Origin: an uncultured Victivallales bacterium
GTDB taxonomy: Bacteria; Verrucomicrobiota; Kiritimatiellia; UBA8416; CAYOBW01
Assembly (NCBI GenBank): GCA_964555035.1
Contig: CAZKRK010000003.1
Span: 1,133-65,132, forward strand
Direction: 5' to 3'
DNA length: 64,000 bases
Below the pieces are notes generated by a model. It was given only the letters and a program-made list of their open reading frames with translations. It searched no databases and had not been told where the DNA came from. Position 1 is the stretch's first letter, and every line of letters begins with the position of its first letter. Shown here piece by piece: positions 4,684 through 47,786 of this stretch. Made by a program: the position numbers and the translations under genes.

Positions 4684-4713
4684 TGCACAATAATTACTTT
4701 CCTATTTGCGCAT
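4684..4713 (-). promoter_or_regulatory. Degenerate copy of the TTGCGCAC-N14-TTGCGCAC box, in the divergent region between the sulfatase operon and the regulator gene
   Basis: tgcacaataattactttcctatttgcgcat. The distal half and the CTTTCCT spacer match the consensus; the first half is degenerate. It lies 358 nt from the sulfatase start and 72 nt from regulator ATG 4785. Confidence 0.35.
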
Positions 4714-4784
4714 CTTGTGCTATAAATCATGCGTGTGTTTCGGCCCTTACCCGCTTACCCGTGAGGCCCAGGGAGTGCGTTGAT

Positions 4785-5981
4785 ATGGCTGCAGGTAGTT
4801 CAGGGATCCCGCAGGTGGTTGTGCTGATTCCGCTGGCGCTGAAGGGGCACCGGGATTGCTTTGAAGGTATCCTTCGGTATGCGCGCGTCAATGGGCCGTG
4901 GCGGTTGTACCGTAGAGAGGGGCGTCCCGGCGAACAACGACTACGGGACTTGAAACGGTGGGGATGTTCGGGGATCGTCACCACGAGCTGCACCTTGCGC
5001 GAGGCCCGGGCCGTCGCCGGTACACGCGTTCCCGTGGTTGTCTTCGAACCCGACCCCGACACGCGCGCGTCCGGGCATCCGTTTGCGCAATACTCATGCC
5101 TGCGTGTCGATTCGTACGCAACGGGCGAACACGCCGCGCGCTTCTTCCTGGAGCGTCACTATGAACACTTCGCTTTCGTGGGCGAGGTCCACGACCTGTA
5201 CTGGTCGCGCGAACGAGGCGAAGGGTTCAGCAAGACGGTCGAGGCGGCCGGCGGTACGGTTAGCGCGTATGGCGCCCCGCCGGCAAAGGCGCGGCGCGAC
5301 TGGGCCATCGAACAACCGCGCATGGAGGCCTGGCTAAAACCGCTCCCGAAACCCGTGGCACTGTTTGCGGCCATGGACGGCCGCGCGCGACAGGTTCTGG
5401 ACGCCTGCCTGGATGCCGGCATTGCCGTGCCGGAAGATGTGGCGGTGCTCGGCGTCGATGACGATCCCCTCATCTGCGACGCCACCCTCCCGACGCTGTC
5501 CAGCATCCAGTATAACTGCGAACACGCCGGCTACCTGCTGGCCGAACACCTGGACAAGCTGATGCGCGGCAAACGCCTGCGCCGTCGGGTGGACTGGGTG
5601 AAACCAACCCGCGTCGTCCGCCGACGGTCCACCGACGCAACGGCCATTGCCGACAAAGTGGTGGCGCGCGCGTGCGAATACATCTGGCGGGAAGCGGGAC
5701 ACCAGTCGATCGGAGTGCCCGACGTCGTAAGCCTGTTCGGCTCGTCTCGCCGCTACGCCGAGAACCGCTTCAAGGCCGTGGTCGGGCGTACCATCATGGA
5801 GGAGATCCGGCGCGTCAAATTGGAGCGCGTCTGCGCCCTGCTCGCAGAAACCAACCTGCCGATCGGCGAGATCGCCCAGCAATGCGACTTCGCCCGCGAG
5901 AGCCACCTGGCCTTCCTCTTCCGTCAGCACCACAACATGACCATGAGCGAATACCGCACGGCGGCGCGGCAACTGAAGTAG
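4785..5981 (+). CDS. XylR-type hybrid transcriptional regulator (periplasmic-binding-protein-like sugar-sensing domain + C-terminal AraC-type HTH)
   Basis: N-terminal VVVLIPL...ILRYARVNGPWRL and AMDGRARQVLDAC...VAVLGVDDD resemble LacI/PBP-type sensor domains. C-terminal NRFKAVVGRTIMEEIRRVKLERVCALLAETNLPIGEIAQQCDFARESHLAFLFRQHHNMTMSEYR is an AraC HTH signature. GGGAG lies 9 nt before ATG 4785. Confidence 0.8.
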   Translation: MAAGSSGIPQVVVLIPLALKGHRDCFEGILRYARVNGPWRLYRREGRPGEQRLRDLKRWGCSGIVTTSCTLREARAVAGTRVPVVVFEPDPDTRASGHPFAQYSCLRVDSYATGEHAARFFLERHYEHFAFVGEVHDLYWSRERGEGFSKTVEAAGGTVSAYGAPPAKARRDWAIEQPRMEAWLKPLPKPVALFAAMDGRARQVLDACLDAGIAVPEDVAVLGVDDDPLICDATLPTLSSIQYNCEHAGYLLAEHLDKLMRGKRLRRRVDWVKPTRVVRRRSTDATAIADKVVARACEYIWREAGHQSIGVPDVVSLFGSSRRYAENRFKAVVGRTIMEEIRRVKLERVCALLAETNLPIGEIAQQCDFARESHLAFLFRQHHNMTMSEYRTAARQLK

Positions 5982-6042
5982 ATGACGAGCGTGTGGGCGA
6001 CGGGTGGGGGAGAGATTATGATGAGACATCACCTTTTGTTCC

Positions 6043-6169
6043 GTCATCCTGAGCGCAGGTCAGCGCGGAGCGATGACCGGAGTCGAAGGATCTCGAGAAC
6101 CGAAATCACGCCGGGCGGTATCGCAGTCCTCGAGATCCCTCGACTCCGCTACGCTGCGCTCGGGATGAC
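6043..6169. repeat. GC-rich imperfect palindrome (REP-like) between convergent genes; possible bidirectional terminator
   Basis: Left arm gtcatcctgagcgcag...ggagtcgaaggatctcgag (6043-6097). Right arm ctcgagatccctcgactccgctacgctgcgctcgggatgac (6129-6169). It produces the spurious ...LEIPRLRYAALGMT... ORF typical of REP translation. Confidence 0.6.
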
Positions 6170-6358
6170 AGGGCGGGTTTTGTCGTTTTCACCTTGAATT
6201 GCCCCCGCCCCCTACCACGTAATCACGCCCGAGAATGTCAGGCCGCCGCCAAGTTTGTCCGCTCCTTGCGCCCCGCCATGTAGCCGACGAGCGACAACAC
6301 GACAGAGAACGACGCGAATCCGAGGTAATCCCACAATCCTAACGGCAGTGAAGCTGGT

Positions 6359-9668: not shown

Positions 9669-9795
9669 GGAGGGCGAGCGTCCCGCGAGCCGCGAGCGAG
9701 ACACGAGCAGGATTGTGACAGGATCTGCGAGAAGCGCCTAACTGTCTCGGACTCGTGCGTCCCTCGTGCTCGGCTCGCGAGGACGCTCGCCCTCC
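9669..9795. repeat. ~127-bp palindromic element, family 1 (arms GGAGGGCGAGCGTCC(C/T)CGCGAGCCG)
   Basis: ggagggcgagcgtcccgcgagccg...cggctcgcgaggacgctcgccctcc. The interior is about 80% identical to the reverse complement of the copy at 17395..17523. It sits in the gap between two same-strand genes. Confidence 0.8.
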
Positions 9796-9816
9796 ATCCC
9801 TTGTTTCAAAACGTGG

Positions 9817-10593: not shown

Positions 10594-10918
10594 GATCCCC
10601 CGGGCTTGTCCTGTCCTTTATACACGAGAGCCAAACCACTTCCTCGCGGAATCCCCGCCCCTTGCGGGCGGGAAGCTTCAGGTTTCAGAGCTACCCCGCC
10701 GAGACCCAGCTACTCCCGAGTCCCATAAGAGCGACGGTCGGGCGAAGCGCACCCCTCGCCCTATTCGGACTCAACTCCCGGGGAGGGTTGTCTGTCCGGT
10801 AGACCAGGAACCTGAAGCTTCCCGCCCGCAAGGGGCGGGGATTCCTCCCGGCGCCCGAAATCGTCACCCGGTACCTCTCCTCCCTCTCTTGTGAATAGAG
10901 GACAGGCCCGGGGGATTC
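10594..10918. repeat. Composite nested-palindrome element, family 2, copy A
   Basis: Outer arms: gatcccccgggcttgtcctgtcctttata (10594-) and tagaggacaggcccgggggattc (-10918). Inner 198-bp module 10648-10845 is bounded by ggaatccccgccccttgcgggcgggaagcttcaggtt and its exact inverse. The core is about 90% identical to the reverse complement of the core at 26618-26815. Confidence 0.8.
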
Positions 10919-10932: not shown

Positions 10933-12405
10933 TCATCCGTCCAATCCATATCTATCCGCGTACTCCCGATAGAGCCTCTCGTACAATTTGCTGCGTTCGT
11001 GATCCGGTTCTATGATTCGCTCCCTGGACTGGGTTCTCGAATAGCCATCCCTTTCATCACGGAAGATACCGATCCCTATGCCCGCCAGGATAACCGCTCC
11101 CATGGCGCCGGCGTGCTTTCCTGTTTCGGGGATACTCACCGGCCGGTTCAGAACATCGGCCAGGATGGATGGCCAGACGGGGCTTCTGGTCGGGCCGCCG
11201 GTCAGTACGACCCTGCCGGCGGGACTCCCCGTCAGCCGCATGAGTTCGTCCACGCGGTTCCTTGTAAGGAACACGATCCCCTCCATGAGCGCCCGGGCTA
11301 TGTTCTCGGGGTCGGCCCTCTCTACGAGGTCCTTGTTCCGTTCATACGGCTGTTGGAACAGCTCGATGAAGAGACCGTCCGCCCCCGGCTTCGCCCGCTC
11401 CGCCAGCCTGTCAAACTTCGCAAACAGCGCTTCGCCATCATCCGCGGCGATGCAGTTATCAAGATACGCTTGCATCTTCTCGGCAACAGCCGTCAGGGCA
11501 AACATGGCGCCCCAGCAACCGGCAGGAGAGAGAAACGGGTCTATGAGCATCCGTCCTCTCAATCCCGTTTCCCTGTTCCTGATCGGCGAAAACACCACCC
11601 ACGACGTTCCGGCGGAGATGAGCAAATCCCCTTCCTCGAACACTCCCGTACTTCTGGCGGCCGAGGGATGATCGAAGCTGCCGGTGACCACCCGGATTCC
11701 CGGGGCAAGCCCGGTGGCCTTGACGGCCTCAAGCGTCACTTCTCCGCAGACCGAGCCGGATGGCAGCAGCTCAGATAGCTGGTCCGCCTCCAACCCAAGA
11801 AACGCGAGCAACTCGTCGTTCCATGTGGATGCTCCCTGGTCTTGCAGGTAGAACGTCGTCGCCTTCGAGTGATCAACGACCAACCGACCGCAGAGCCGCT
11901 GGTAGAGATAGTCATTGAGCATGGTGAAATGGCGGGCCTTCCGCCAGGCTTCCGGTTCGGACTCCTTCAGCCAGCCAAGGTGGGCCAGGGGAAAGGTGCC
12001 GCCAAAGGGCCAGCCCGCGCCGCGGTATACACGCTCCGGATCCAAATCCGGCCACAGCTCGGACTCCCTGCCGGTTGTCCTCGTGTCCAGCCAGCTGATT
12101 GCGTTCCGCACGGGATTGTAGTCCTGGTCGAGGAGCAACGTGTTGCCGCTGGCGCCGCTCAGGCTGACGGCCTTGATCGCGTTTGGATTGCCGACCTTCG
12201 AAACCAGTTCATTGATCAGCGAGCATACATCCTCGAAGTAGCGTTCAGCGTCGAGCTCAACCCGCTGCTCTTCCGGACGGACCAGCTCTACCTGCCGGCT
12301 TGCCTGGCAGACCACATTGCCACCCGTATCCGAAAGCACGGCTTTCATGGCACTGGTACCAAGGTCAAACCCGATGAGGTATTCGCCTGTCTCGCTCTCG
12401 CTCAT
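10933..12405 (-). CDS. FGGY-family carbohydrate kinase (xylulokinase-like)
   Basis: N-terminal YLIGFDLGTSAMKAVL and C-terminal VVLTGGPTRSPVWPSILADVLNRPV are FGGY signatures. Confidence 0.85.
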   Translation of the reverse strand: MSESETGEYLIGFDLGTSAMKAVLSDTGGNVVCQASRQVELVRPEEQRVELDAERYFEDVCSLINELVSKVGNPNAIKAVSLSGASGNTLLLDQDYNPVRNAISWLDTRTTGRESELWPDLDPERVYRGAGWPFGGTFPLAHLGWLKESEPEAWRKARHFTMLNDYLYQRLCGRLVVDHSKATTFYLQDQGASTWNDELLAFLGLEADQLSELLPSGSVCGEVTLEAVKATGLAPGIRVVTGSFDHPSAARSTGVFEEGDLLISAGTSWVVFSPIRNRETGLRGRMLIDPFLSPAGCWGAMFALTAVAEKMQAYLDNCIAADDGEALFAKFDRLAERAKPGADGLFIELFQQPYERNKDLVERADPENIARALMEGIVFLTRNRVDELMRLTGSPAGRVVLTGGPTRSPVWPSILADVLNRPVSIPETGKHAGAMGAVILAGIGIGIFRDERDGYSRTQSRERIIEPDHERSKLYERLYREYADRYGLDG

Positions 12406-12488
12406 GCTTCAATTTGCTTCCATCTACCGGGCGTATTCAGATTCGTGAAGCAGAATACGCACACGCCAAGGTAACGCGCTACCCCCTC

Positions 12489-12518
12489 TTGCGCACAACT
12501 TCTTTCTTGTTTGCGCAC
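12489..12518 (-). promoter_or_regulatory. TTGCGCAC-N14-TTGCGCAC box upstream of the FGGY-kinase-led operon
   Basis: ttgcgcacaacttctttcttgtttgcgcac, 84 nt from start codon 12405. CTACC at 12479-12483 reads GGTAG on the coding strand. Confidence 0.6.
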
Positions 12519-12637
12519 GGGGAGGGCGCATCCCGGGACTCTGCAGCACCGGTCTGATTAGACCCCATCCGAAAAGGGGCGGCGGCCGATTTTGGCCTGA
12601 AACGCCAGGAGGATGGGGAGGCCGGAAGATTGTGGAG

Positions 12638-12718
12638 AGAGATTAAGTAGAAAGATTAGGTAGATACTCTTAATCAAACCTTAATCTTTTGCCCTAATCT
12701 TTCGCCTTAATCTTCTCC
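12638..12718. repeat. 13-bp-period AGATTARG array: 2 forward units then 3-4 reverse units
   Basis: agattaagtagaa|agattaggtagat (12640, 12653), then cttaatca (12669) and ccttaatcttttg|ccctaatctttcg|ccttaatcttctc (12680, 12693, 12706). It is an AT-rich patch in otherwise GC-rich DNA. Confidence 0.7.
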
Positions 12719-12809
12719 CGGTGATCTTCCATGGAACTCTCAACACCACCGACATTCACATCTCCACAACCCAGATATTCCGAAAGCGCACATGGCCACG
12801 GCTGCTTGT

Positions 12810-14870
12810 TCATTGTGTCTCTTGTGTCTCTATCGACTTGAGCAACTTGCTTGCGTTTTTCTTGAGCTCTGTATTGGCCGTGTCGGCCATGATCTTCTCA
12901 AGTGCGGGCTTCACCGCCTGTGCCTGGCTCTTGCCCAATGCGGCGCAGATCGTGTATGCCGCCAGCATGGCTTCTTCTCTTACATCCGGGTCGTCAAAGC
13001 GGTCCAAAGCCACTTTCAGTGCATCCACATGAGCCAACCCGCTCAGTCCGCTCAGCAACCCGCTCTTCTCCGGGCCGGTAACGGCAACGTCGAGGCCCCT
13101 GGTATAGCGCTGCATCAGGGCGACCGGGTCCTTACGTTGCTCAGTCAGGCGGGCCAACTGTGCCGTGTATGCCCGCAGAGCCAGAACGCCGTTGAGCGAG
13201 TCGGGTCCCCTGCCCGCCGTACGAAGCAGGAGCTCCAATACTACGTCGGGATCCGGCCATTCCTGCAGGGCCCGGATCGCGGCGCGCCTGATTTCCTTGT
13301 CTTCAGATGCAAGCGCTTCACCGAGGGTTTTCAACTCGGATTCCCGGGAAGCGGCAGAGGTTACCTTCGGCAGCATGGCAATCAGTTCCGCACGCCCCGG
13401 GCAATTGCCCTTCATCAACCACCCCACAACGAGTTCTGACCGCTCCGGAGAAGGCGCGCTGATATCGCCTGACCTGGACAGCGCAGCCATGGCTTTGGCA
13501 CGCACTTTCCGGTCCGGTTCGCCGGCCAGGAATTCAACGATGGGAGCATAGGCAGAAGGTTCCCCGACCTTTGCCAGCACCTCCAATGCTCCAACACGAA
13601 CATGGTTGTCGGCATCCTTCAATGTTCCCAGCAACACCGGCACACACTCGGCCTTCGGACAATTGCCGAGCAGCCTCACAAGCGATAAGCGTACGGAAGC
13701 CGAGGCGGGAGGCAGGGCCTTTTTCAGTTTCGCGGCAATCCTGCTTTTGCCAGGACTTCTTTCCAAGGATTGCACGGCACTAGCCAGGTCGCGCCCGGAC
13801 ACAACCGCGGCGATAAGCGCATCCGTAGCACGCTCATCATCAAAGCTGCCCAATGCGATCAGGGCGGCTCCGCGAACAATAGCGTTCGTGTCACCGGCCG
13901 CGGCCAGGACCGTGTCCAAACTGGCCGGATCCGCATGGGAGCCCAGCACACCCAGCAAATCCGCTTTGAGATTAGGATCCGCCGCGGCGATACTTCCATA
14001 TGCTTTCTCGGCCTCCCGGCTTCCAGTGCGATCAGGGGAAAAGACGAGCTTGAGAACAGCGGGGTTTCGCTGGTCTGCGTCCTTTAGAACGTCCAGGATG
14101 AAGTCACGCTCGCCGGCCCCGCCGGCAAGCGCCAGCCCCATCAGCGCGTTCCCTGTCTGGTATCCGCCCCGCTCAACCAGTTCGCGATATATGGATGACG
14201 CCTCACGCCTCTTTCCGAGCTCCGCCAACCGGTCGGCATGAGCAAGATAGGCGTTGATCGCCGCCATCTTCGCAGCCTTCGAACCTTGCTTGATGCCGGC
14301 CTGAAACGGTGCGTTGAGCGGCTCGTCGCTCACGAGGGCAACCGCGTGCAGTGCTGAATTTCGAACCTGCGTGTCCCTGCTTGTCGCGAGATCGACAACC
14401 TGTGGCAGGCATGCTGAATCGCGACGTTCGGAAAGAGCATGAATAAGCGCAGCTTGACGTTCAGGGGCCGAGGTTTCGGCCAGGGCTTCGCGAAGCGCAA
14501 CCGCGGCTTTTTCAGACGGGTTCCGCTGCAGCCCGAGAACGGCACGGGTATGAAACACCGGGTCCTCGTGGTTCAACAAGCTGACAAGATAGTCAACGCT
14601 CTCGGCCCCGCCGAAGCGTACAAGAAGCGTCAGTAACTCTGCCTTGAATGTGACCGGGAGGGCCTCGCTCTTCACGTGATCCATGACCGTTGTGCAAGCC
14701 TGCGCCCGTTTCTCGTCCATTCCGTTGCTTATGGCTTCTTCAAAGACCTGTACCAGCCCATTCAGGTTCTTCGCGCCAACGAGGGCATCGACGGGTTCCT
14801 CTGCATTCGCAGATCCCAGCGACAGCGCGCAGATGATGGACACTAAACGCAATGACAGTGCCTTGTTCAT
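12810..14870 (-). CDS. Secreted HEAT-repeat protein
   Basis: Signal peptide MNKALSLRLVSIICALSLGSANA (ATG 14870). Recurrent Leu/Ala-rich helical repeats with VRxxAxxALG-type blocks (HEAT/PBS-lyase-like) run through the protein. Confidence 0.7.
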   Translation of the reverse strand: MNKALSLRLVSIICALSLGSANAEEPVDALVGAKNLNGLVQVFEEAISNGMDEKRAQACTTVMDHVKSEALPVTFKAELLTLLVRFGGAESVDYLVSLLNHEDPVFHTRAVLGLQRNPSEKAAVALREALAETSAPERQAALIHALSERRDSACLPQVVDLATSRDTQVRNSALHAVALVSDEPLNAPFQAGIKQGSKAAKMAAINAYLAHADRLAELGKRREASSIYRELVERGGYQTGNALMGLALAGGAGERDFILDVLKDADQRNPAVLKLVFSPDRTGSREAEKAYGSIAAADPNLKADLLGVLGSHADPASLDTVLAAAGDTNAIVRGAALIALGSFDDERATDALIAAVVSGRDLASAVQSLERSPGKSRIAAKLKKALPPASASVRLSLVRLLGNCPKAECVPVLLGTLKDADNHVRVGALEVLAKVGEPSAYAPIVEFLAGEPDRKVRAKAMAALSRSGDISAPSPERSELVVGWLMKGNCPGRAELIAMLPKVTSAASRESELKTLGEALASEDKEIRRAAIRALQEWPDPDVVLELLLRTAGRGPDSLNGVLALRAYTAQLARLTEQRKDPVALMQRYTRGLDVAVTGPEKSGLLSGLSGLAHVDALKVALDRFDDPDVREEAMLAAYTICAALGKSQAQAVKPALEKIMADTANTELKKNASKLLKSIETQETQ

Positions 14871-14887
14871 TCGGCCTGCTCCTGGCA

Positions 14888-14946
14888 CTTAATCTCATTA
14901 CGTAATCTCTCCCTGCCACGATGAAGGACTAAGTAATGTGATTAGG
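14888..14946. promoter_or_regulatory. AGATTARG-type 13-bp units immediately upstream of the HEAT gene
   Basis: cttaatctcatta|cgtaatctctccc (14888, 14901; reverse units), then tgattaggtaatg (14939; forward unit). On the coding strand GAGAGATTACGTAATGAGATTAAG ends 18 nt before ATG 14870. Confidence 0.35.
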
Positions 14947-14978
14947 TAATGAGACAAAGTGCTTCATTCCCTATTCTA

Positions 14979-16247
14979 CTAGATATGCCACGGCCCGCGG
15001 TACGGTTTGTCCATCAACCGGTTTGCCTCTGCGTCGTCAATAAACGCTTCCTTCTTCGCATCCCACTTCAAGGGACGCCTGAGCCGCTGGGCAATCTCGC
15101 TGCTGTGGCACAGGAACTCACTCTGGTAGGCTGCATCCTCATTGCATATCGGCCTCTCACGGGTCCGGATGCAGTTGTGCCACTCCCTGTAATGGCCGGC
15201 ACCGTGGGGCATATCAAACGCGGCAAGGCCCTGTGCAAGTTCCGGTGGGTCCGTCCAGATGAATCCCCTTGCCATGGATTGAAAGAACAGTTTGCCTTCG
15301 GTGCCGATGATCGCAAAAGGGCCGCAGTAAGGCGCTCTCATGCCTTTCAGCCGATCCGGGATCGGCAACCCTTCAAACCCGACCTGCAGAAAGGCGCCGT
15401 CTGCGTACTTCCAGGTCGTGACGCTCTTGTACTCCTTGCCGTCCGCCGGATGGATCGCAACCGGACTTTCGGTTTCATATCCCAATACGTGCCGGACCGC
15501 ATCGTTCGGATGGATCGCTCCGCCATTCACCATGTTGCGACCGAAATCAATATGCGTATGCCATCCAAGCACACCGCGCATCGCAAAGCTGTTGTAGGGT
15601 CGGTAGGGCGCCGGCCCCAACCACATGTCCCAATCGAGCATATTGGGGTTCATCGGTTGCGCCGGATAATGGATTTGCCCAGCCAACCGGTCATGCCAGG
15701 AATCACCGACTCCCGCTGCCACGATCTTCCCGAGTCGACCCTGCTCCACCAAGTGGCGTGCATACTGCACAATCTTGCTCGACGTTCGCTGAGTCCCATG
15801 CTGGAAAACACGCCCATTGCGTTTAACCGCATCGCGGATGGCGGCAGCCTCGCGGATGGTCGAGCTCATGGGTTTCTCACCAAACACATCCTTGCCGGCT
15901 TTGAGCGCCGCGCTAATCTGAATTGCATGCCACTGCTCGGTTGACCCCACGGCAATGGCATCAATATCGTCACGGGCCAACACGTCTCGAAAATCCAGGT
16001 AGAGCCCCTTCTTCGGATCCGGGTCACCCCCCAGCTTGTCCCGACGCACATCGCATTTTGCCAATACGACGTCGCACCGGACGCCCCGGGCCGGACCACC
16101 CAGCCCGATATTTGCGCTGGTTATCTTCTCGCTCGGCGGAAGTGCTCCCTTCCCCAGCACGTGCCGTGGCACGATGTTTATCGTAGCCATCGCGGCCACA
16201 CGGGTCATGAAGCTCCGACGGGAGAATGCCGGTTTTGTTCTCATCAC
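14979..16247 (-). CDS. Gfo/Idh/MocA family oxidoreductase, Tat-exported
   Basis: Tat leader MMRTKPAFSRRSFMTRVAAMA. Family-typical DIDAIAVGSTEQWHA and GKDVFGEKP blocks. Confidence 0.8.
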   Translation of the reverse strand: MMRTKPAFSRRSFMTRVAAMATINIVPRHVLGKGALPPSEKITSANIGLGGPARGVRCDVVLAKCDVRRDKLGGDPDPKKGLYLDFRDVLARDDIDAIAVGSTEQWHAIQISAALKAGKDVFGEKPMSSTIREAAAIRDAVKRNGRVFQHGTQRTSSKIVQYARHLVEQGRLGKIVAAGVGDSWHDRLAGQIHYPAQPMNPNMLDWDMWLGPAPYRPYNSFAMRGVLGWHTHIDFGRNMVNGGAIHPNDAVRHVLGYETESPVAIHPADGKEYKSVTTWKYADGAFLQVGFEGLPIPDRLKGMRAPYCGPFAIIGTEGKLFFQSMARGFIWTDPPELAQGLAAFDMPHGAGHYREWHNCIRTRERPICNEDAAYQSEFLCHSSEIAQRLRRPLKWDAKKEAFIDDAEANRLMDKPYRGPWHI

Positions 16248-16286
16248 AGTTTCCGTTTCACGTCATGTACAGAGGAAGAGATATGG

Positions 16287-16354
16287 GTGTACGAGTATGT
16301 GTACGAGTACGAAAAGAACCCGCCAGTCACGTACTCCTACACATACTCGTACAC
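16287..16354. repeat. 25-bp-arm palindrome between the ThuA and Gfo/Idh/MocA genes
   Basis: gtgtacgagtatgtgtacgagtacg (16287-16311) and cgtactcctacacatactcgtacac (16330-16354), with one mismatch and an 18-nt loop. Confidence 0.7.
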
Positions 16355-16407
16355 GCGAATCTCCCCGTTTCCTCAACGTTGGGACACTACCGATTAGCGA
16401 TTACCGA

Positions 16408-17340
16408 TCACCGCTCCCCACCCGTCCGCGGTGCATCCTCGGCCTCCAGATCCCCAAGAACATATTGAATGCCCGCGAGATGATGGGACAGGACTTTCTC
16501 GTTCCAAAAGACAGCAGGATAGTGTCCCAATCCGCTGTAGAACACACGTCCCTTGCCATATCGATGCACCCAGCTTAGCGGGTAGTCCGCATCTTTGCCC
16601 GGACTGTGCGGAACATCCATCTTGGTCCTGGCTTTATCCAGCGACAACAGTACCCGGCTTTTGTCTCTCGAGAAACTCGTAAACACGTAGATCTCATCCA
16701 AGTGCGAAAACGACGCCTCGCCAAAGGAGCGAACCAGCGGATGCGCGGGCTCCTCAACGAGTACATATGATGGTTCGTTCGACCATGGGTGACTGATCGA
16801 AAAGCACCCGACCATATCGACGTATTCAGGCCAATCCGTGACATGTGCGGCACAGTGGATACCGGCGAACCCTCCTCCTTTGCGGATGAATTCGAGCAGG
16901 TTCTTCCTCTGCTGCGGATCGGGAACCACATTGCCACAGGGGTTGTTGAAGACAACCGCATCATACTTGGACAATGCGGCGAGGTCGCTGAATACGGAAG
17001 GGTCATCATCAACCGTAGCCGTATAAGCACCGGTTTTCTCGCCCATGAGTTTCAATGCCTGTCTTCCGTGCGGAATGGATGCATGAACGAATCCAATGGA
17101 CCTGGAAAAGACCAGTATCTTGCGAGGTCTCGCTGGTTTGACCTGTGTTTTGACCTTCTGCACGGCAACGTTGATCTTCTCCATATCAGCCTCAGGCAAA
17201 GGTCCTGCAGTGACCCGCCGGCAGAGCCCCAGGATGATTAGGGCAGTCATGGACAGCAACTTCCGGCCTCCCGTCCGCAGAGCTGGCTTAGCGGTGGAAC
17301 TGCCTGTGAAGAAGCGCTGTCTATCTCTCTCTATCGACAT
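16408..17340 (-). CDS. ThuA-domain protein (trehalose-utilisation ThuA-like), secreted or anchored
   Basis: KILVFSRSIGFVHASIP, YDAVVFNN, GGGFAGIHCAAH and WVHRYGKGRVFYSGLGH are ThuA-like blocks. The N-terminal hydrophobic segment MTALIILGLC could be the true start. Confidence 0.75.
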   Translation of the reverse strand: MSIERDRQRFFTGSSTAKPALRTGGRKLLSMTALIILGLCRRVTAGPLPEADMEKINVAVQKVKTQVKPARPRKILVFSRSIGFVHASIPHGRQALKLMGEKTGAYTATVDDDPSVFSDLAALSKYDAVVFNNPCGNVVPDPQQRKNLLEFIRKGGGFAGIHCAAHVTDWPEYVDMVGCFSISHPWSNEPSYVLVEEPAHPLVRSFGEASFSHLDEIYVFTSFSRDKSRVLLSLDKARTKMDVPHSPGKDADYPLSWVHRYGKGRVFYSGLGHYPAVFWNEKVLSHHLAGIQYVLGDLEAEDAPRTGGER

Positions 17341-17394
17341 AGATCTTCCGCTCCCTTCGTAGCGCTATGCAAGGGCTGTTCGAAGAAGTCTCCT

Positions 17395-17523
17395 GGAGGG
17401 CGAGCGTCCCCGCGAGCCGAGTGCGAGGGACACGCAAGGGCAGAGACAGGGAAGTGATACCCGTGTATTCTGTCACATTTCTGCTCATGTCTCGCTCGCG
17501 GCTCGCGAGGACGCTCGCCCTCC
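17395..17523. repeat. ~129-bp palindromic element, family 1, opposite orientation to copy 9669..9795
   Basis: ggagggcgagcgtccccgcgagccg...cggctcgcgaggacgctcgccctcc. It sits in the gap between the GH43-like and ThuA genes. Confidence 0.8.
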
Positions 17524-17569
17524 ATTACCTGTTTGAGGAAGGTCCAACGCCCCCCCCTTCGGGCTACCT

Positions 17570-18616: not shown

Positions 18617-18697
18617 CTCCTCCTCTTGGCGCGCGGAGAATGTTGTTGCTTAGTCCACACAGCCTAAGCCGTTCCCCGTCGAAGCATCTACCCGCAT

Positions 18698-18727
18698 TTG
18701 CGCACAAGTTCTTTCCTGTTTGCGCAC
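18698..18727 (-). promoter_or_regulatory. TTGCGCAC-N14-TTGCGCAC box upstream of the GH43-like gene
   Basis: ttgcgcacaagttctttcctgtttgcgcac, 82 nt from start 18616. CTACC at 18688-18692. Confidence 0.6.
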
Positions 18728-18994
18728 GGGGTGTATGCGGGAATTGCGCGGGAAAGGGAGAAACAGCCTCCCGCCCTTCGTCTTTACCATTGTCTGTACC
18801 TTAATCTGTTCGGAAAGAGACACGGGTAAAGACAATCGTAGAGACAGCGGTGTTGTGTTGTGTGTGGGGGTACGCATCACGCGCCTTGTTTGCGGCGCCA
18901 TTCGGGCTTGCCCCCGTCACTCTCTGATGCTTGGGCAGAAATGTGTGTACGACGTGAGGCATACATGCTGGCTTCATCTTGGATCAGATAGGAG

Positions 18995-20551: not shown

Positions 20552-20657
20552 TCCAGCAGTAACTTACCCGATATGTGGTAAATGTAACATCCTGGAGTGC
20601 TGTCGTCAACCCCCGGCCCCCGACCTCACCGGCGGAGCAGTCACCCAAATTGACAGC

Positions 20658-23297: not shown

Positions 23298-23372
23298 GGG
23301 GTTCTCTCAACCTTAACGCATCCGAGGTTCCATACAGCCTACGCCTCTTTCCACCGACCGGTCTACCGCCTC

Positions 23373-23402
23373 TTGCGCACAAGTTTTTTCCTGTTTGCGC
23401 AC
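23373..23402 (-). promoter_or_regulatory. TTGCGCAC-N14-TTGCGCAC box upstream of 20658..23297
   Basis: ttgcgcacaagttttttcctgtttgcgcac, 76 nt from start 23297. CTACC at 23363-23367. The ~42 nt between box and gene are near-identical to those at 26438-26479. Confidence 0.6.
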
Positions 23403-23743: not shown

Positions 23744-23802
23744 TCCCCTGCGCCTGAGAAGACGGGGGTAAGGACTGTGGCAAAGACGAGGCTGCGGGGA
23801 GT

Positions 23803-26404: not shown

Positions 26405-26479
26405 ACGCCTCCGTTCTTGCCTTTCTCTTGGAAATCTCACACAGCGTACGCCTCTTTCCGCCAGACGGTCTACCGTCTC

Positions 26480-26509
26480 TTGCGCACAAGTTCTTTCCTG
26501 TTTGCGCAC
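26480..26509 (-). promoter_or_regulatory. TTGCGCAC-N14-TTGCGCAC box upstream of 25307..26404
   Basis: ttgcgcacaagttctttcctgtttgcgcac, 76 nt from start 26404. CTACC at 26470-26474. Confidence 0.6.
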
Positions 26510-36320: not shown

Positions 36321-36412
36321 CTTCGCATCTCCAAATCAAGTTGGCCTTGCGGCACTCTCGGCTATCATGCAAACAACTATCGGGCAACCGGCAAGCGGGA
36401 TACTACCCACGT

Positions 36413-36442
36413 TTGCGCACAAGTTTTTTCCTGTTTGCGCAC
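36413..36442 (-). promoter_or_regulatory. TTGCGCAC-N14-TTGCGCAC box upstream of the LamG gene 33120..36320
   Basis: ttgcgcacaagttttttcctgtttgcgcac, 93 nt from start 36320. Preceded by gggatactaccc (36397-36408), which reads GGGTAGTATCCC on the coding strand. Confidence 0.6.
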
Positions 36443-42195: not shown

Positions 42196-42308
42196 ACCGT
42201 CCGTTGTTCCTTGCCTCTCATCGCTCACGTGCGACCGCGCATTCGTGGCACTACTGCCTACTATGGCCCCTATTATGCGTTGAAGGGCGAGCGAGATACT
42301 ACCCAACG

Positions 42309-42338
42309 TTGCGCACAGACTTTTTCCTATTTGCGCAC
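42309..42338 (-). promoter_or_regulatory. TTGCGCAC-N14-TTGCGCAC box upstream of the giant LamG/LTD/CotH gene
   Basis: ttgcgcacagactttttcctatttgcgcac, 114 nt from GTG 42195. Preceded by gagatactaccc (42293-42304). Confidence 0.55.
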
Positions 42339-42621: not shown

Positions 42622-42846
42622 ATGGGCAACGTTCCAGTACTTAAGCCCAAGGAAGTCGTCCGTATACTTGAGACTCTCGGCTTCCTGCTCGTACGCCAAC
42701 GCGGCTCCCACCGCCAGTACCGCCACAGTGACGGCCGCTGCACGACCGTTCCTTTCCATGCCGGCCGCGACATCGCCCCACCCCTGCTTCGTCAGATCGC
42801 AAAGGACGTCCACCTGAGCATCGACGAGTTCCTAACGCATCGGTGA
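42622..42846 (+). CDS. hicA: HicA-family mRNA interferase toxin
   Basis: LKPKEVVRILETLGFLLVRQRGSHRQYRH...TVPFHAGRDIAPPLLRQIAKD is the HicA/YcfA pattern including the GSH histidine. Confidence 0.85.
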   Translation: MGNVPVLKPKEVVRILETLGFLLVRQRGSHRQYRHSDGRCTTVPFHAGRDIAPPLLRQIAKDVHLSIDEFLTHR

Positions 42847-44322
42847 TGGTCCGATCACTCGCACCTCCACCCCCAGCATCCGCCCGAAGGCGGCAACGGC
42901 CTCCGCGCAGTCTCCCAGCACCAGCGCGCTGTGGTGCGTACCGCCGGCGCGGGAGTAGGCTTCGAGGAAATCGCCCACCTTGCACGTGGGCCGCACCCAG
43001 GCGCGAACCGTGTCGCGCATGGCCGGGTCGAGGGTGTCGTCTTCGGCCAATACTTCGACCGGGGCAACGATCAGGGAGAAGCTGTCATTCGGGCCGGGCG
43101 GGAGGTTGACAAACACGGCTGGCCCGGGCTTAACGGCACAGGTCAACACTGCGGTCGTTGCGGATTTGCCGTCGAATGCCGGCTTGGCACAGATCCTGGG
43201 CCGATCGCCGGCGACGGCGGGACCGATCTCGCCCATGTGCGAGAGGAACAGGCTGTTGCCGGTCCAGTCGGGACAGAAGATCTCGGTGAAGGTGACGCCG
43301 CCGAACTCCCGCGCCAGGGCTCCCACCAGGGCGGCGGTGAGAACATCCCCTTCGCCGGCATACCCGATGCCCCGCGCCATGGCTTTCGAGATCTCCAGGA
43401 ACGGCATGGTGTCGGCAGCTCGGTCGGTACGGTCGAACTCCTGAAAGTTGATGCTGAAGCCGTGATACCCACCGGCATCAAGCAACTGCCGCAATCCGAG
43501 TCCCACGCGAATGGACTGACGGTGAACAGCCTCGTCCAGCTCGCAGTCGAACCGTTTGTGGTCCAACGCGAGTTCCGCAGTCACGGCCGTTTCCGTCACG
43601 GCCCCGACCGCGCTGTCCAGTGCTTCCAGTCCAACCTGCTCGACCTCTATTCCGAGGCGCTCACGCAGAAGCTCCACCTCAACGGCGAAATCGCCCATCC
43701 CGGTAAAGGCATCGCCGATGCGCAATATGCGATTGTCGTGCATTGGTGCTCCCGCGGATGCGGAACGGGTCGAATCCACGATGGCCGAGCCACCGTCGAG
43801 TCCGGCAGGAGTCGCGTCGGCTGCAGAGGCGGTTCGAACCATCCCTGCAACCCGTTCCAGCAAGGACGGATCACGGTAGTGGCCGGCAGCAATCTCGTAC
43901 GCCTTGCCGCGCCGCCGCAGCATGCTGGCCAGGTCCATGACGCCGTGGATGCCGTGGTTGTACATCAGCCGGTCCGCCCGTACATCAACGCCGTACGCCG
44001 CGTCCATGGTCGTGTCCAGCATGACGATCGGCAGCGAGGTGCCGCACAGTGCATCGATGGCCTCCAGGGAAGGTGAATACGCCAGGTGCAACGTGACGAT
44101 GGCGTCGATGCTATCGTTCTCGAACTGGTGGACAGCGGCCCCAAACTCGTCCGCAACACAGCAAATCGGCGCCTGCCGCACCGCAATGCCCAGCGCCTCA
44201 AAGCCGCCAACAACGTCGGCCATAAAGCCGTCAAACTGCGACCGCAGATCCGGCAGCAGCTCGTCGTACAGCGCCAGGTAAAGCGGCAGGAGACCGACGG
44301 TGAGTTTGGTTTCATCTGTCAT
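42832..44322 (-). CDS. L-arabinose-isomerase-like (AraA/FucI superfamily) sugar isomerase
   Basis: ATG 44322 (MTDETKLTVGLLPLYL...). GIGYAGEGDVLTAALVG, FLSHMGE and AGGTHHSALVLG parallel the E. coli AraA blocks GYGFAGEGDWKTAAL, LGSHMLE and AGGAHHTVF. Confidence 0.75.
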   Translation of the reverse strand: MTDETKLTVGLLPLYLALYDELLPDLRSQFDGFMADVVGGFEALGIAVRQAPICCVADEFGAAVHQFENDSIDAIVTLHLAYSPSLEAIDALCGTSLPIVMLDTTMDAAYGVDVRADRLMYNHGIHGVMDLASMLRRRGKAYEIAAGHYRDPSLLERVAGMVRTASAADATPAGLDGGSAIVDSTRSASAGAPMHDNRILRIGDAFTGMGDFAVEVELLRERLGIEVEQVGLEALDSAVGAVTETAVTAELALDHKRFDCELDEAVHRQSIRVGLGLRQLLDAGGYHGFSINFQEFDRTDRAADTMPFLEISKAMARGIGYAGEGDVLTAALVGALAREFGGVTFTEIFCPDWTGNSLFLSHMGEIGPAVAGDRPRICAKPAFDGKSATTAVLTCAVKPGPAVFVNLPPGPNDSFSLIVAPVEVLAEDDTLDPAMRDTVRAWVRPTCKVGDFLEAYSRAGGTHHSALVLGDCAEAVAAFGRMLGVEVRVIGPSPMR

Positions 44323-44460
44323 GAGATACGGTCCCCCCGAAGGCAGGCAATGGAGGGCGAGGCTGCGCCGAGCCGTGAGCAAATGCAGAGCATATACCGT
44401 GTAAGAAAGGCGCAGAGCTCCCCCCTTTACTCCGTCCATGCACGTTCGCTTGCGCCCGGC

Positions 44461-45504
44461 TCAGCACAGCTTCGCCCTCCAGGACATTCTCTCAGCCACC
44501 GACCGAAACAGCCGATCGGCATTGTTGAAGAAGAAGTCCTCGACCTCCCGCTCCTCCAGCCCCGCACGCTCCGCGGCCAGCTTGATACCACGGAGCTGCT
44601 CGTAATAAAAGGTCGTGAATGTCACGGCGCCGTTGGCGTCGTAGATCGAGGTGCCCAGCTCATAGTCTTCGCCCAGCAGGTAGGCGTACTGGTTGTTGAT
44701 CTCCACGGATTTGCCGCGCAGTAACGCGAAAGGCGTATCGGCACCGAACAGGATGCGGTCGCGCGGGAAGTTCCCGAAGGCGTACTCAAGAACCCCCTCG
44801 TGGTTGATCATGGCGGTGTCGATCCAGGCGTTGGGACAGGCGGCAATGCCCGCCAAAAAGCCAACCACGTTGCGCAGGAAATAGGCCCGCCCGACGTGTG
44901 CGAAGATGATACGTGCCTTCGGATAGCGCTCACACAGCTCCACCATCTGGGCCTGGTTGACCGGGTCGGCCAGACGCCCCGGCCGCGGAATGTGCAGCAT
45001 GTTCACCAGCCCGAGTTCATCGGCCGCCTCCATCTGCGCGGCAGGCAACATGTCGTTCACCGTCACCTCGTCTACCGGCTTGCCGGTGACGAAAGCCGGG
45101 TACGGCTTGAAGCCGACGAGCTGGTTTTGCTCCACTCGCCGCCGCGCGGTTTTCGCCGAATCCTCGGGCGCCACCAGGGCCAGGCCATAGGAGCTCTGGC
45201 TGTCTGAAATGCTGCCCGTGTAGACTGCCGAGGCGTCGCGATCGCTCTCCAGACCCGGGTGACCAAAGCTGTTCGTGTAGATCTTCACGCCCGGCAGGGC
45301 CTGGTCGGCCCACGCCCGGTACTGTGACGGCGTGAATACACCGCCGAACTTGTGGTAGCAGTGTCGCGGCGGGAAGGTCGCGCCCGGAAGCAGGCATGAC
45401 GCGTCGAAGAAGTGAACATGCGCATCGAAGATTCTCGAAGGCAGAAATCCACGCAGCTCTCGCTCGAAGATCTGCCGGTCCCTCTCTTGACGATCATCGC
45501 TCAT
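44461..45504 (-). CDS. Amidohydrolase-2-type metal-dependent TIM-barrel hydrolase
   Basis: IFDAHVHFFD (HxH metal site near the N-terminus), MLHIPRPG, IIFAHVGRAY and LFGADTPF are family-like blocks. Confidence 0.7.
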   Translation of the reverse strand: MSDDRQERDRQIFERELRGFLPSRIFDAHVHFFDASCLLPGATFPPRHCYHKFGGVFTPSQYRAWADQALPGVKIYTNSFGHPGLESDRDASAVYTGSISDSQSSYGLALVAPEDSAKTARRRVEQNQLVGFKPYPAFVTGKPVDEVTVNDMLPAAQMEAADELGLVNMLHIPRPGRLADPVNQAQMVELCERYPKARIIFAHVGRAYFLRNVVGFLAGIAACPNAWIDTAMINHEGVLEYAFGNFPRDRILFGADTPFALLRGKSVEINNQYAYLLGEDYELGTSIYDANGAVTFTTFYYEQLRGIKLAAERAGLEEREVEDFFFNNADRLFRSVAERMSWRAKLC

Positions 45505-45519
45505 TGCGCTCGCATCTCC

Positions 45520-46758
45520 TTACAGCTTGTACTGTGGGATCTTCAGCAACTCACCGTCTTTGAGCGCCGACTTGTGCGCCACGACGCCGGCCACGGTCAT
45601 GTTGAGCGCCTGGGCCACGTCCACCCACGGCTTGCGGTCCCGCAAAATGGCATCGATGAATTCGGTCGTGTGGTGACCGTGCGAGCCGCCGTGTCCGCCG
45701 CCACCGACGCCTGGCGGAAGAGGCGGCCGGCTGGTGTTCACCGCGACCTTGTCGAACTTCTGACCATAGACTCGTCCGCGTTCACCGCCGTTCTGCCGGA
45801 TGTCCCAGCAGACCGCCATGCGTGACATACCGCCGTCGTTCGTCCGGAACAGCGCAATCTCGCTGCCGAAGGGGTTCTTGTAGTCGTTGTTCTCGGGTCG
45901 CAGGTGTGGCACGACGCTGGGCATGCCCATGCAGGAAACTTCGGTGAAACTCCCGCCGGTGATGCCGATGTGGTAGGCGTTCGAATGGGTCGGGTACCAT
46001 TGCGGCGGCAACCCTTTGCGCCATCCGTTGACGTCCACCTTGTTCGTTTTCGGATTGTACCCCCCGATGGGTTTTCCGAAGAAGTGAAAGTACTCGCCCT
46101 CGGAGTAGATGATCTTGCCGAACGCCCCCGCGAGATACTGCTGGCGCCACGCATACAAGTCGGCGTGGTAGTAGGACGTCTCGAACATCATATACTTCAG
46201 GCCGCTCTTCTTGACGGCTTCAAACACGCGGTCGCAATCCTCGAGCGAACCGAAGGCCGCCGGCACGGCGGTGGCGACATGTTTACCATGCTGCAACGCC
46301 AACACGGCCAGGCGAGCGTGACTGGGCGCATCCGTGGCAATGAACACGGCCTCGATGGTGTCGTCCTTGATCATCTCCTCGCACGACGGATAGGTCTTCT
46401 GGCAGCGGCAGGCCTGGGCGAGCTGGGCACGGCGCGATGGAATCAGGTCGGTGACCGCCACGACCTCGACGTTCGGGTGATTCTGAAAACCCCATGCAGC
46501 GCCGAACCGGCACAGGCCGTACCCGGCGATGCCGACACGGATCTTGCGGTCGGAAAACGGCTGCCAGCCCTTGCCGGTCCCCGCCGGACCGGTGTCCTCG
46601 AAACCGGGGATGATATTGCCGTCGCCGTCCCGGGGGGGACCGGCCGCCCCCGCGCCGTTCGCGGCCGTGACAGCGCCCAGACCCAGGACGGCCCCCGCAA
46701 CGCCCATTCCTTCGACGAAACTACGCCGTGTCATACCTGCTGGTTGTTCTTTGCTCAT
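45520..46758 (-). CDS. Gfo/Idh/MocA family oxidoreductase, Tat-exported
   Basis: ATG 46758. Tat leader MSKEQPAGMTRRSFVEGMGVAGAVLGLGA. IRVGIAGYGLCRFG Rossmann motif. GKHVATAVP. Confidence 0.8.
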   Translation of the reverse strand: MSKEQPAGMTRRSFVEGMGVAGAVLGLGAVTAANGAGAAGPPRDGDGNIIPGFEDTGPAGTGKGWQPFSDRKIRVGIAGYGLCRFGAAWGFQNHPNVEVVAVTDLIPSRRAQLAQACRCQKTYPSCEEMIKDDTIEAVFIATDAPSHARLAVLALQHGKHVATAVPAAFGSLEDCDRVFEAVKKSGLKYMMFETSYYHADLYAWRQQYLAGAFGKIIYSEGEYFHFFGKPIGGYNPKTNKVDVNGWRKGLPPQWYPTHSNAYHIGITGGSFTEVSCMGMPSVVPHLRPENNDYKNPFGSEIALFRTNDGGMSRMAVCWDIRQNGGERGRVYGQKFDKVAVNTSRPPLPPGVGGGGHGGSHGHHTTEFIDAILRDRKPWVDVAQALNMTVAGVVAHKSALKDGELLKIPQYKL

Positions 46759-46785
46759 CGCGTCGGTCCTTTCTTGATGCAAGCG

Positions 46786-47158
46786 AGGTCCCCGGGCTCT
46801 TGTCCAGCCGTAGCCTTGGCAAAAGCGGATGCCCCGGAGCGTCTCAGACTGTTCCGCTACACGCAACCAAGATCCCCCGGGCTTGTCCCGGGGAGTTTCA
46901 GGCTGTTCCGCTACACGCCTGGCTCTCCCATTCTCTCCCGGAGCCCGGGACGAGGCAAGTGAGGAGCTCCGCGCTCGCCTGCCTCCAAACGGGCTCTGGA
47001 GCGTGGTGACGTCTTTCCTTAGCTCAACACCCTAACGATCCCCGGGGCAAGCCCGGGGGATTCCTCTGCCTCCTCTTGGTCCGTTACTCGTGGTCCACCA
47101 TCCTAATGACCCCGGGCATCCGCCTTCGCCAAGGCGGGGCAAGCCCGGGGGATTCCCA
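46786..47158. repeat. Cluster of short GC-rich palindromic units related to family 2 (GATCCCCCGGGCTTGYCC / GGGGCAAGCCCGGGGGATTCC)
   Basis: gatcccccgggcttgtcccgggga at 46871-46894 is flanked by direct repeats ctgttccgctacacgc at 46848 and 46902. gatccccggggcaagcccgggggattcc sits at 47038-47065 and ggggcaagcccgggggattccc at 47136-47157. Confidence 0.7.
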
Positions 47159-47161
47159 TTA

Positions 47162-47662
47162 CTACTCCCCCATGACCAACACTTCGCAGACGCGTTTGCG
47201 TTCGCGGACCTGGTCCCAGTCGATGAAGTAGATAAACCCGAAATCGCCGAGCGAAAGCTCCCCCTTTTCGAGCACGATATTCTCGGAGCGGCCGAAGAAG
47301 CAGGAGCGCAGGTGGGCGTCGGTGTTCAGGCTGCCCTTGGGCTCCTCGTCGGGAAACGTGAGCGCAAACTCGATATGCTCGGGGCCCGGATGGTGATACT
47401 GCCCTTCGGTGCGGCAGGTGGGAATCAGCTTCTCCATGGTTTCCATCAAATCGACCTGCAGGTACTCACGGCCGAAGTAATTCAGGTCGTGCGAACACTC
47501 CTGGGTGATGACCGAGCAGGTGGTGTGGTGAGAGTAGACGGTCACCAGCCCGTTCTGGATGCCGGATTCCGCCACGATCTCCTTTACCTCGTCGGTGACG
47601 TTGTGGAAATCCGGCATGTGATCTTTCGACTGCACTTCGATTTTGCCAATGTGTACTGCCAT
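47162..47662 (-). CDS. yjbQ: YjbQ/UPF0047 family protein (second paralog)
   Basis: ATG 47662 (MAVHIGKIEVQSKDHMPDFHNVTDEVKEIVAESGIQNGLVTVYSHHTTCSVITQE...NTDAHLRSCFFG). GGAGAGAGGGAA RBS. Confidence 0.8.
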   Translation of the reverse strand: MAVHIGKIEVQSKDHMPDFHNVTDEVKEIVAESGIQNGLVTVYSHHTTCSVITQECSHDLNYFGREYLQVDLMETMEKLIPTCRTEGQYHHPGPEHIEFALTFPDEEPKGSLNTDAHLRSCFFGRSENIVLEKGELSLGDFGFIYFIDWDQVRERKRVCEVLVMGE

Positions 47663-47756
47663 GAGTGGTTCCCTCTCTCCTGTTTGTCTTCCTGTAGAAG
47701 AGTTGTCTCTCGAGCCCATACTCTACGACGAAAGCCAACCGGGATACTACCCCCTT

Positions 47757-47786
47757 CCGCGCACAGAGATTTTCTTATTTGCGCAC
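47757..47786 (-). promoter_or_regulatory. TTGCGCAC-N14-TTGCGCAC box (first half CCGCGCAC) in the divergent region between yjbQ and the GH95-like gene
   Basis: ccgcgcacagagattttcttatttgcgcac, 95 nt from ATG 47662. Preceded by gggatactaccc (47741-47752). Confidence 0.5.

Follow-up and report, generated by a model that had tools for sequence, protein, structure and literature searches.

A 30-bp direct-repeat box as the likely operator of a XylR-family regulator in an uncultured Victivallales bacterium

A 64,000-nucleotide stretch of contig CAZKRK010000003.1 (assembly GCA_964555035.1; hereafter 'the window'), from an uncultured Victivallales bacterium, raises a simple question: why does one 30-bp box, composed of two 8-mers with a 22-bp period, recur ahead of its minus-strand gene runs? 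An earlier reading of this DNA, made from the letters only (the sequence-only reading), had taken the box for an AraC/XylR-type regulatory element and pointed tentatively to the XylR-type gene at 4785-5981 as the source of its regulator. As judged by pattern counts, comparison with related genomes and published operators, the box most probably serves a sugar-sensing activator of the XylR family, encoded in the window, as the site from which it turns on seven carbohydrate-use and surface-protein operons.

The repeated box and its predicted core promoter

The pattern TTGCGCAC-N14-TTGCGCAC has seven matches in the window, every one on the plus strand, against 1.1 expected, and none of 100 shuffles reaches seven. 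Six copies, starting at 12489, 18698, 23373, 26480, 36413 and 42309, match without mismatch; the copy at 47757 has two mismatches, with CCGCGCAC in the promoter-proximal 8-mer (GTGCGCGG on the coding strand). On the coding (minus) strand the box is GTGCGCAA-N14-GTGCGCAA and reads GTGCGCAAAYARGAAARNNNYTGTGCGCAA. When both window strands (128 kb) were scanned with a position weight matrix (PWM) built from 34 copies, the seven sites scored 52–66 bits and the next best match 3.4 bits, with no copy in the opposite orientation. The repeated box is thus a real element, as the sequence-only reading had it, and its placement in one orientation upstream of minus-strand genes is borne out. Each of the seven full copies lies between genes and points in the direction of the gene that follows, 76–114 nt before the lead-gene starts by the distances of that reading. 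An eighth copy, previously described as degenerate (4684-4713), is real as well (23.7 bits versus 4.5 for the next best match), but only its distal half, ATGCGCAAATAGGAAAGT at 4696-4713, is kept.

Conservation extends beyond the 30 bp. The pentamer GGTAG is invariant in the window and lies exactly 5 nt past the box in all seven copies, giving a conserved block of about 44 nt (four C-rich positions, then the 30-nt box, N5 and GGTAG) and the module consensus GTGCGCAA-AYARGAAAR-N5-GTGCGCAA-N5-GGTAG. Exactly 21 nt after GGTAG, again in seven out of seven copies, there starts an nAnnnT hexamer (see Table 1). Across 33 non-redundant copies, taken from the window and related genomes, TAnnnT is found 19–24 nt after GGTAG in 26, and in 25 of these at 20–21 nt; about 2% would be expected (binomial P ~7e-38). 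Information content is high only from -4 (the C-rich positions) to +40 (GGTAG), with a weaker second block at TAnnnT, and the repeat period is 22 bp in 34 of 34 aligned copies, the diverged ones included.

These spacings change the register of the promoter. The sequence-only reading had allowed 4–7 nt between box and GGTAG and had read GGTAG plus the next nucleotides as the -10, which put the proximal half-site into the -35/spacer region. The spacing is in fact fixed at 5 nt, and TAGnnN ends in T in just 14 of the 33 copies, whereas TAnnnT follows 20–21 nt downstream in 25. Taking TAnnnT as the -12/-7 element, GGTAG would lie at about -38/-34, the proximal 8-mer at about -51/-44 and the distal 8-mer at about -73/-66: the half-sites move some 20–25 nt farther upstream, and the -35 region would be GGTAG rather than the proximal 8-mer. 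The earlier interpretation is therefore partly supported, being right in kind (activator operator, regulator) and wrong in register (-10, spacing).

Over 12000-27000, the part of the window with four of the seven boxes, a scan for the sigma-70 consensus found no canonical -35/-10 promoter at any of these box promoters. The scanner is silent there because a TTGACA-like -35 is lacking, and such a lack is what activator-dependent promoters would show. We also considered a GGAAC-like -35 of the extracytoplasmic function (ECF) type within the loop of the box, and rejected it, the loop positions being the least conserved.

Linkage of the box to a XylR-family gene

The protein encoded at 4785-5981 matches the Pfam families Peripla_BP_3 and HTH_18/HTH_AraC, that is, a sensor with the LacI/GalR-like periplasmic-binding-protein fold followed by a C-terminal AraC-type double helix-turn-helix. 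Its residues 22-393 align with E. coli XylR over the full length (PDB 4FE4/4FE7, E 2e-41), and NCBI labels an ortholog merely 'XylR family transcriptional regulator'. Comparing some 40 window open reading frames (ORFs) with Pfam yielded no other regulator, no LytTR protein and no sigma factor, in agreement with the earlier statement that this is the sole regulator in the window.

Of 16 loci with relatives of the regulator (designated by L numbers), 14 have a box, full or half, directly ahead of the regulator gene in the intergenic region. Six carry a distal-type half box, RTGCGCAAATAGGAAAGTAWTT, 44–72 nt upstream and pointing away from the gene: the window itself, L038, L087, L078, L073 and L070, with regulators 100, 89, 87, 85, 81 and 73% identical to the window protein, respectively. 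A full box, RTGCGCAA-N14-TTGCGCAA-N5-GGTAG-N20/21-TAnnnT, occupies the divergent intergenic region beside the regulator in L081 (70% identity), L082 (69%), L084 (62%), L083 (59%) and L089 (58%), facing a divergent operon with FGE-sulfatase, LamG or GFO genes; L089 encodes two paralogs, each with its own box, the second of which was left out of the identity comparison. In L085 (63%) and L088 (65%) the upstream box has diverged in sequence and kept the 22-bp, N5 and N20-21 geometry, the cores being CCGCAA in both halves of L085 and TCGCATAA / TTGCGCAA-N5-GATTA in L088. The gene in L086 (49%) has no box upstream. Chance matches to the full PWM above ~18 bits do not occur in these loci. The standard ground in comparative genomics for pairing factor and operator is that the site persists at the gene of the factor while genomes diverge, and we regard this linkage as the decisive evidence for the pairing predicted here. 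Together with the full-length XylR homology, it strengthens the assignment of the box to the 4785-5981 protein.

On the regulator strand of the half-box loci, an extended -10 of the TGn-TATAAA type follows about 9 nt past the half box. In the window it is TGcTATAAA, with the hexamer at ~4722-4727, and the half box overlaps the predicted -35/spacer. This half box, in the opposite orientation, suggests autoregulation, which could be of either sign.

In the distant relatives (58–70% identity) the regulator gene stands beside the operons apparently controlled, one divergent and one nearby. A weaker box variant, GTACGCAAAAGTGCAAA..ATTTTGCGTAAACGGGGGTA (18–31 bits), was seen at L081:6424, L082:3601 and L085:20521 (minus strand), in each case upstream of a class III aminotransferase operon; the regulators of these three genomes are 63–70% identical to that of the window, and the operon looks like a second ancestral member of the regulon. 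Several genes around the regulator recur in L081, L083, L084, L085 and L089 (cf. window 42832-47719): FGE-sulfatase-like genes (often in two or three copies) or LamG, GFO/IDH/MocA, Aminotran_3, AlaDh_PNT and a further GFO/IDH/MocA gene, as well as FGGY kinase, Amidohydro_2, an AraA-like isomerase, an SSF symporter and Mem_trans. The set looks like an uncharacterised catabolic pathway for a sugar or amino sugar, and may define the effector.

Proposed mode of action and its rivals

We consider it probable that in each 40-bp module the XylR-family regulator has its operator, joined to a core promoter of the sigma-70 type, one with a normal -10 (TAnnnT, 20–21 nt after GGTAG) and no recognisable -35. 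The 8-mer direct repeats, at 22 bp, are two helical turns apart and so would lie on the same DNA face. Each 17–18-bp half – TGCGCA followed roughly one turn later by GGAAAG in the distal and by GGTAG in the proximal half – would be the footprint of one AraC-type double helix-turn-helix domain. A sugar-loaded dimer of the regulator would then cover about -73 to -34, its proximal subunit touching or overlapping the -35 region and recruiting RNA polymerase by class II-type activation, for which E. coli XylR at PxylA/PxylF, XylS at Pm and AraC at araI1-I2 serve as models. The sequences compared here show the motif, its fixed geometry, its conservation among genomes and its link to the regulator gene; from these we infer that the regulator binds, that it activates and does not repress, where transcription would start, and that a sugar is the effector.

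Among the models, AraC at araI1-araI2 (pBAD) uses a pair of direct-repeat half sites, 17 bp each and with a 21-bp period; the proximal one overlaps the -35, and activation needs both to be occupied. The box resembles this arrangement in its tandem half sites about two turns apart with the proximal one at the predicted -35 region, and differs in sensor domain and recognition sequence; the window shows no sign of the distal O2-type looping site or of the CRP involvement of the AraC system. The operators of E. coli XylR are about 37 bp long, with two direct repeats next to a poor -35; binding of the protein requires xylose, and recruitment of RNA polymerase is its presumed mode of activation (PMC3561964). 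Likeness to XylR (IA/IF operators, PxylA/PxylF) includes the same two-domain regulator aligned over its full length (PDB 4FE4/4FE7), an operator of about 37–40 bp made of two direct repeats, a position, here predicted, next to a poor -35 of a sigma-70 promoter, and control of sugar catabolism and transport operons, one of which adjoins the regulator gene (PMC3561964). The recognition sequences are, however, unrelated (GTGCGCAA..GGAAAG/GGTAG here, gaAa-a-a-AAT in E. coli), the effector here is probably not xylose, the predicted regulon is wider and takes in glycoside hydrolases as well as giant LamG/LTD surface proteins, there is a half box at the promoter of the regulator itself, and the host is an uncultured bacterium of the Planctomycetes-Verrucomicrobia-Chlamydiae (PVC) group. 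A xylose operator, or the E. coli XylR regulon proper, was rejected on the unrelated operator sequence and on the lack of an identified xylA or xylB, the boxed units holding FGGY kinase, an AraA-like isomerase, GH43, LamG proteins and others. XylS binds at Pm, a promoter of the Pseudomonas putida TOL plasmid, to two TGCA-N6-GGNTA direct repeats, of which the proximal one overlaps the -35 by two bases, an overlap that is essential (PMC4225500). The proximal half here, TGCGCA-N6-GGTAG, is similar and ends at a predicted ~-34, but the distal half has its GGAAAG two bases closer and the sensor domain of XylS is cupin-like; we take the resemblance as a lead only, not as homology of specificity. On this comparison, the best reading is that the design is known (XylR, XylS/Pm, AraC) and the recognition sequence new, and the earlier idea of AraC/XylR-type tandem direct repeats next to the -35 fits both the 22-bp period and the linked double helix-turn-helix regulator.

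Several points weigh against the mechanism as drawn. The halves are not congruent: GGAAAG begins 4 nt after TGCGCA and GGTAG 6 nt after it, and given this 2-nt shift of the second element the model of one DNA-binding domain per half is not exact. GGTAG could be a promoter element or polymerase contact instead of part of the operator, and all positions relative to +1 depend on a predicted -10. In L043 (75% identity) no box precedes the regulator gene in the 8-kb locus; a full one is present 24 nt past the stop codon of the gene. PVC genomes hold many XylR-type paralogs, and another paralog could share or own the site. Furthermore, the box is unlike the E. coli XylR operator consensus, and published work on E. 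coli XylR assigns one operator to each subunit, with looping of the DNA, so that binding here may depart in detail from the mode proposed.

A different transcription factor, of LytTR type or another XylR paralog, might bind the box, with the XylR-type gene as a regulon member or neighbour. LytTR-type sites (those of AgrA, ComE and PlnC) are direct repeats of about 9 bp, 12–13 bp apart, upstream of the -35, so that the 8–10-bp repeats with a 22-bp period upstream of the -35 match this layout too; as for paralogs, there are 411 XylR homologs at E<=1e-30, two of them on one contig. The conserved genomic partner of the box is nevertheless the XylR-family gene: no LytTR protein is linked to it and the ~40 window ORFs compared with Pfam contain no other regulator domain. 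Another factor would leave unexplained why the box lies upstream of the regulator in 14 of the 16 loci, down to 58% identity, a pattern that commonly marks a factor and the operator belonging to it, and in L089 each paralog has a box to itself; we hold this alternative to be unlikely. We give still less credence to a lineage-specific alternative sigma promoter working without activator, in which GGTAG, the repeats or both form an extended upstream element. While GGTAG is near-invariant at the place of the -35, more so than typical -35 hexamers, and a canonical -35 is missing, the downstream element is a housekeeping-type TAnnnT. The -10 of ECF-type promoters is usually CGTC-like. In addition, the ~40 window ORFs scanned include no sigma factor gene, a 30-bp tandem repeat farther upstream is not a feature of sigma recognition, and the linkage to the XylR-type gene would go unexplained.

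Equally improbable is that the regulator acts at the box mainly as a repressor or anti-activator, or that the boxes are a duplicated promoter module free of common regulation. The half box does sit in a repressing position at the regulator's own promoter, and the near-alike promoters at 23373 and 26480, before unrelated genes, do speak of module duplication or gene conversion. The full boxes, by contrast, lie upstream of the predicted -35 region at promoters with no recognisable -35, an activator layout, and E. coli XylR is an activator (PMC3561964); the retention of the box at orthologous promoters with diverging flanks points to selection and not to recent copying alone. Finally, a transcribed 5'-leader RNA hairpin, in which one palindromic UGCGCA would pair with the other over a 16-nt loop, scarcely merits belief. 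A 6-bp stem can form and is seen in minimum-free-energy folds, with 98.5% of cells pairable, but not one pair covaries, shuffled alignments give the same value as the real one, the z-scores of the folds (0.2 to -1.5) are not significant, and the whole window gave no Rfam match at the gathering threshold. CCGCAA in both halves of L085 breaks three of the six pairs and keeps the direct repeat; moreover, the conserved -10 is downstream of the box, which is therefore probably not transcribed from that promoter. The window contains no tRNAs.

Predicted regulon, distribution and neighbouring elements

The preferred reading, a XylR-family operator, gives the window a predicted regulon of at least seven boxed operons in 41 kb (Table 1). 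The box does not mark a general promoter type, since plus-strand units lack it though they are carbohydrate-related (GH95, GH38, FGE-sulfatase/HZS-alpha, 3-keto-disaccharide hydrolase-ThuA). One XylR-family protein would thus be tied to catabolic operons (FGGY kinase, isomerases, SSF symporter), secreted glycoside hydrolases and giant LamG/LTD proteins, which suggests that catabolic, hydrolase and surface-protein genes answer one signal.

Table 1. Positions of the box modules, their units and other elements, numbered from the first letter of the window
Feature	Position	Strand	Remarks
XylR-family regulator, 398 aa	4785..5981	+	Proposed binder of the boxes
Half operator, distal half ATGCGCAAATAGGAAAGT at 4696-4713	4684..4713	-	23.7 bits; 72 nt upstream of the regulator gene and divergent from it
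Full operator	12479..12518	-	63.9 bits; lead gene FGGY kinase 12405-10933
Predicted -10 TATTCT	12452..12457	-	21 nt after GGTAG; invariant in orthologous FGGY promoters
Operon of box 12489	down to 6359	-	FGGY kinase, TIM-like, YjbQ, SIS, SSF symporter
Full operator	18688..18727	-	65.8 bits; lead gene GH43 18616-17570; predicted -10 TAGGCT 18661-18666
Operon of box 18698		-	GH43, ThuA, GFO/IDH/MocA, HEAT-repeat protein
Full operator	23363..23402	-	63.9 bits; lead gene 23297-20658; predicted -10 TAGGCT 23336-23341
Unit of box 23373	23297-20658	-	879-aa GHL6-like protein; orthologous promoter in L027
Full operator	26470..26509	-	62.1 bits; lead gene 26404-25307; predicted -10 TACGCT 26443-26448
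Unit of box 26480	26404-25307 (lead gene)	-	365-aa protein of unknown family, then GH76-like; L043 ortholog of the lead gene also boxed
Full operator	36403..36442	-	66.2 bits; lead gene 36320-33120; predicted -10 GATAGT 36376-36381
Unit of box 36413	36320-33120	-	1066-aa LamG-domain protein
Full operator	42299..42338	-	52.4 bits; lead gene ~42228 to 37855; predicted -10 CATAAT 42272-42277
Unit of box 42309		-	~1457-aa LTD/LamG protein, then 448-aa LamG protein
Full operator	47747..47786	-	55.9 bits; proximal 8-mer GTGCGCGG; predicted -10 TAGAGT 47720-47725
Operon of box 47757	down to 42832	-	YjbQ, GFO/IDH/MocA, Amidohydro_2, AraA-like isomerase; ortholog in L044
Matching promoter modules	23316-23422, 26423-26529	-	Match runs to ~10 nt past the -10
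nCCGnTnnGCGGnAAAGRGCn spacer subclass	18661-18692, 23336-23367, 26443-26474		Also L026:3964, L038:2412, L056, L070:544, L018:7343
GGACAAGCCCGGGGGATC elements	10594-10917, 26540-26938, 46871-47154
GGCTCGCGRGGACGCTCGCCCTCCA repeats	9772-9798, 17392-17526, 60888-60966

To follow the box beyond the window, we scanned the pattern GTGCGCAANNNNGAAANNNNNNGTGCGC, from which GGTAG was deliberately excluded, against one genome per species from 185,579 species. Of the 64 stretches that match, about 20 also carry GGTAG (or GGTAT, GATAG, GCTAG) at +5 and TAnnnT some 21 nt later. These true copies come exclusively from metagenome-assembled genomes (MAGs) labelled Kiritimatiellia, Victivallales or Verrucomicrobia, the rest being spread over other phyla and free of both extras. 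A pattern scan of metagenomes returned 10 stretches, four of them true copies, and contigs with the window's own genes came from JGI and ENA metagenome assemblies. Elsewhere the box precedes LamG giants, FGGY kinase, twin-arginine translocation (TAT)-signal GFO/IDH/MocA oxidoreductases, GH43, FGE-sulfatase-like and SGNH hydrolase genes, and unknowns. In the orthologous FGGY promoters of four genomes (the window's, with L024, L051 and L073), box, GGTAG and TATTCT are kept and the upstream flank is unalignable: a box that is kept while its flanks diverge is a phylogenetic footprint, not a recent copy. With its mixed cargo, this upholds the earlier view of a regulon-type element as opposed to a by-product of gene duplication. 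A literature search on the 8-mers and on Kiritimatiell* with promoter, motif or XylR gave nothing relevant, and we found neither motif nor regulon described in the searchable literature.

What results is a concrete predicted regulon in a marine PVC lineage not yet in culture, Kiritimatiellia and their relatives, whose genomes hold many sulfatase and glycoside-hydrolase genes. Regulons can be mapped in MAGs with the 40-bp PWM, several start codons are reassigned from the predicted -10 positions, and the regulator/promoter pair is a candidate inducible expression system. How AraC/XylR-type activators are thought to work is unchanged by it; its use is in annotation and regulon mapping in uncultured marine PVC bacteria. 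As for the start codons, the ORF starts at 47719, 26509 and 42411 are over-extended, since they fall within the box, or on or ahead of the predicted -10; the true starts are likely 47662 (MAVHIGK...), 26404 and ~42228.

Between -20 and +80 of the module, the promoters at 23373 and 26480 agree at 79 of 100 positions, and within the box at 19 of 20. The match includes the spacer between GGTAG and the -10, the downstream genes are unrelated, and the L043 ortholog of the 26404-25307 gene has a different spacer; this suggests duplication of a promoter module, or gene conversion, between neighbours 3 kb apart. More widely, a spacer subclass after GGTAG, nCCGnTnnGCGGnAAAGRGCn-TAGGCT-GTGTG, is found before non-homologous genes. 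It holds a GGAAAG-like element, which could be a second operator or just reflect common ancestry. The promoters of the LamG giants have a separate common spacer, TATCYCGCTTGYC... At L019:904-1365, a full box with the LamG-class spacer has no intact ORF behind it, just a 37-aa fragment resembling an Ig-like repeat, before the next box, 462 nt further on; the probable explanation is an orphan promoter left over from a giant-protein gene that has decayed.

The near-identical 23373 and 26480 modules, along with the almost invariant 40-bp sites, are also the basis for a tentative, rather doubtful reading of the regulon's history: an ancestrally local regulator would have become a master switch for much of the glycan-degradation and giant LamG genes through copying or converting of an ~85-bp operator-plus-core-promoter cassette before unrelated genes. 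A single box per locus in the distant relatives was considered as well and rejected, as a PWM rescan adds the weaker aminotransferase site in L081, L082 and L085; it also finds a box for the 59% paralog in L083. Given these second sites and the L083 box, a claim of regulon expansion cannot rest on site density.

Other repeats share the intergenic space. GGACAAGCCCGGGGGATC occurs seven times in the window versus zero expected, in intergenic inverted pairs 190–400 bp apart that look like small elements similar to miniature inverted-repeat transposable elements (MITEs); one lies 30 nt upstream of box 26480 and another covers an 81-aa 'gene' called after the FGGY kinase. GGCTCGCGRGGACGCTCGCCCTCCA (five copies versus zero expected) forms mostly close inverted pairs in intergenic gaps within operons and resembles repetitive extragenic palindromic (REP) sequences. 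These MITE-like repeats differ in look from the box, for which a mobile repeat (REP/MITE) was rejected: the box has one orientation, is tied to gene starts and is kept at orthologous promoters. Finally, an imperfect inverted repeat, GTGCATTGCG-ct-CGCAAcgATGCAC, lies at ~47841-47866 (plus strand) upstream of the GH95 gene at 47970, within the divergent intergenic region that it has in common with box 47757, and is a candidate operator through which another regulator would act on the plus-strand unit.

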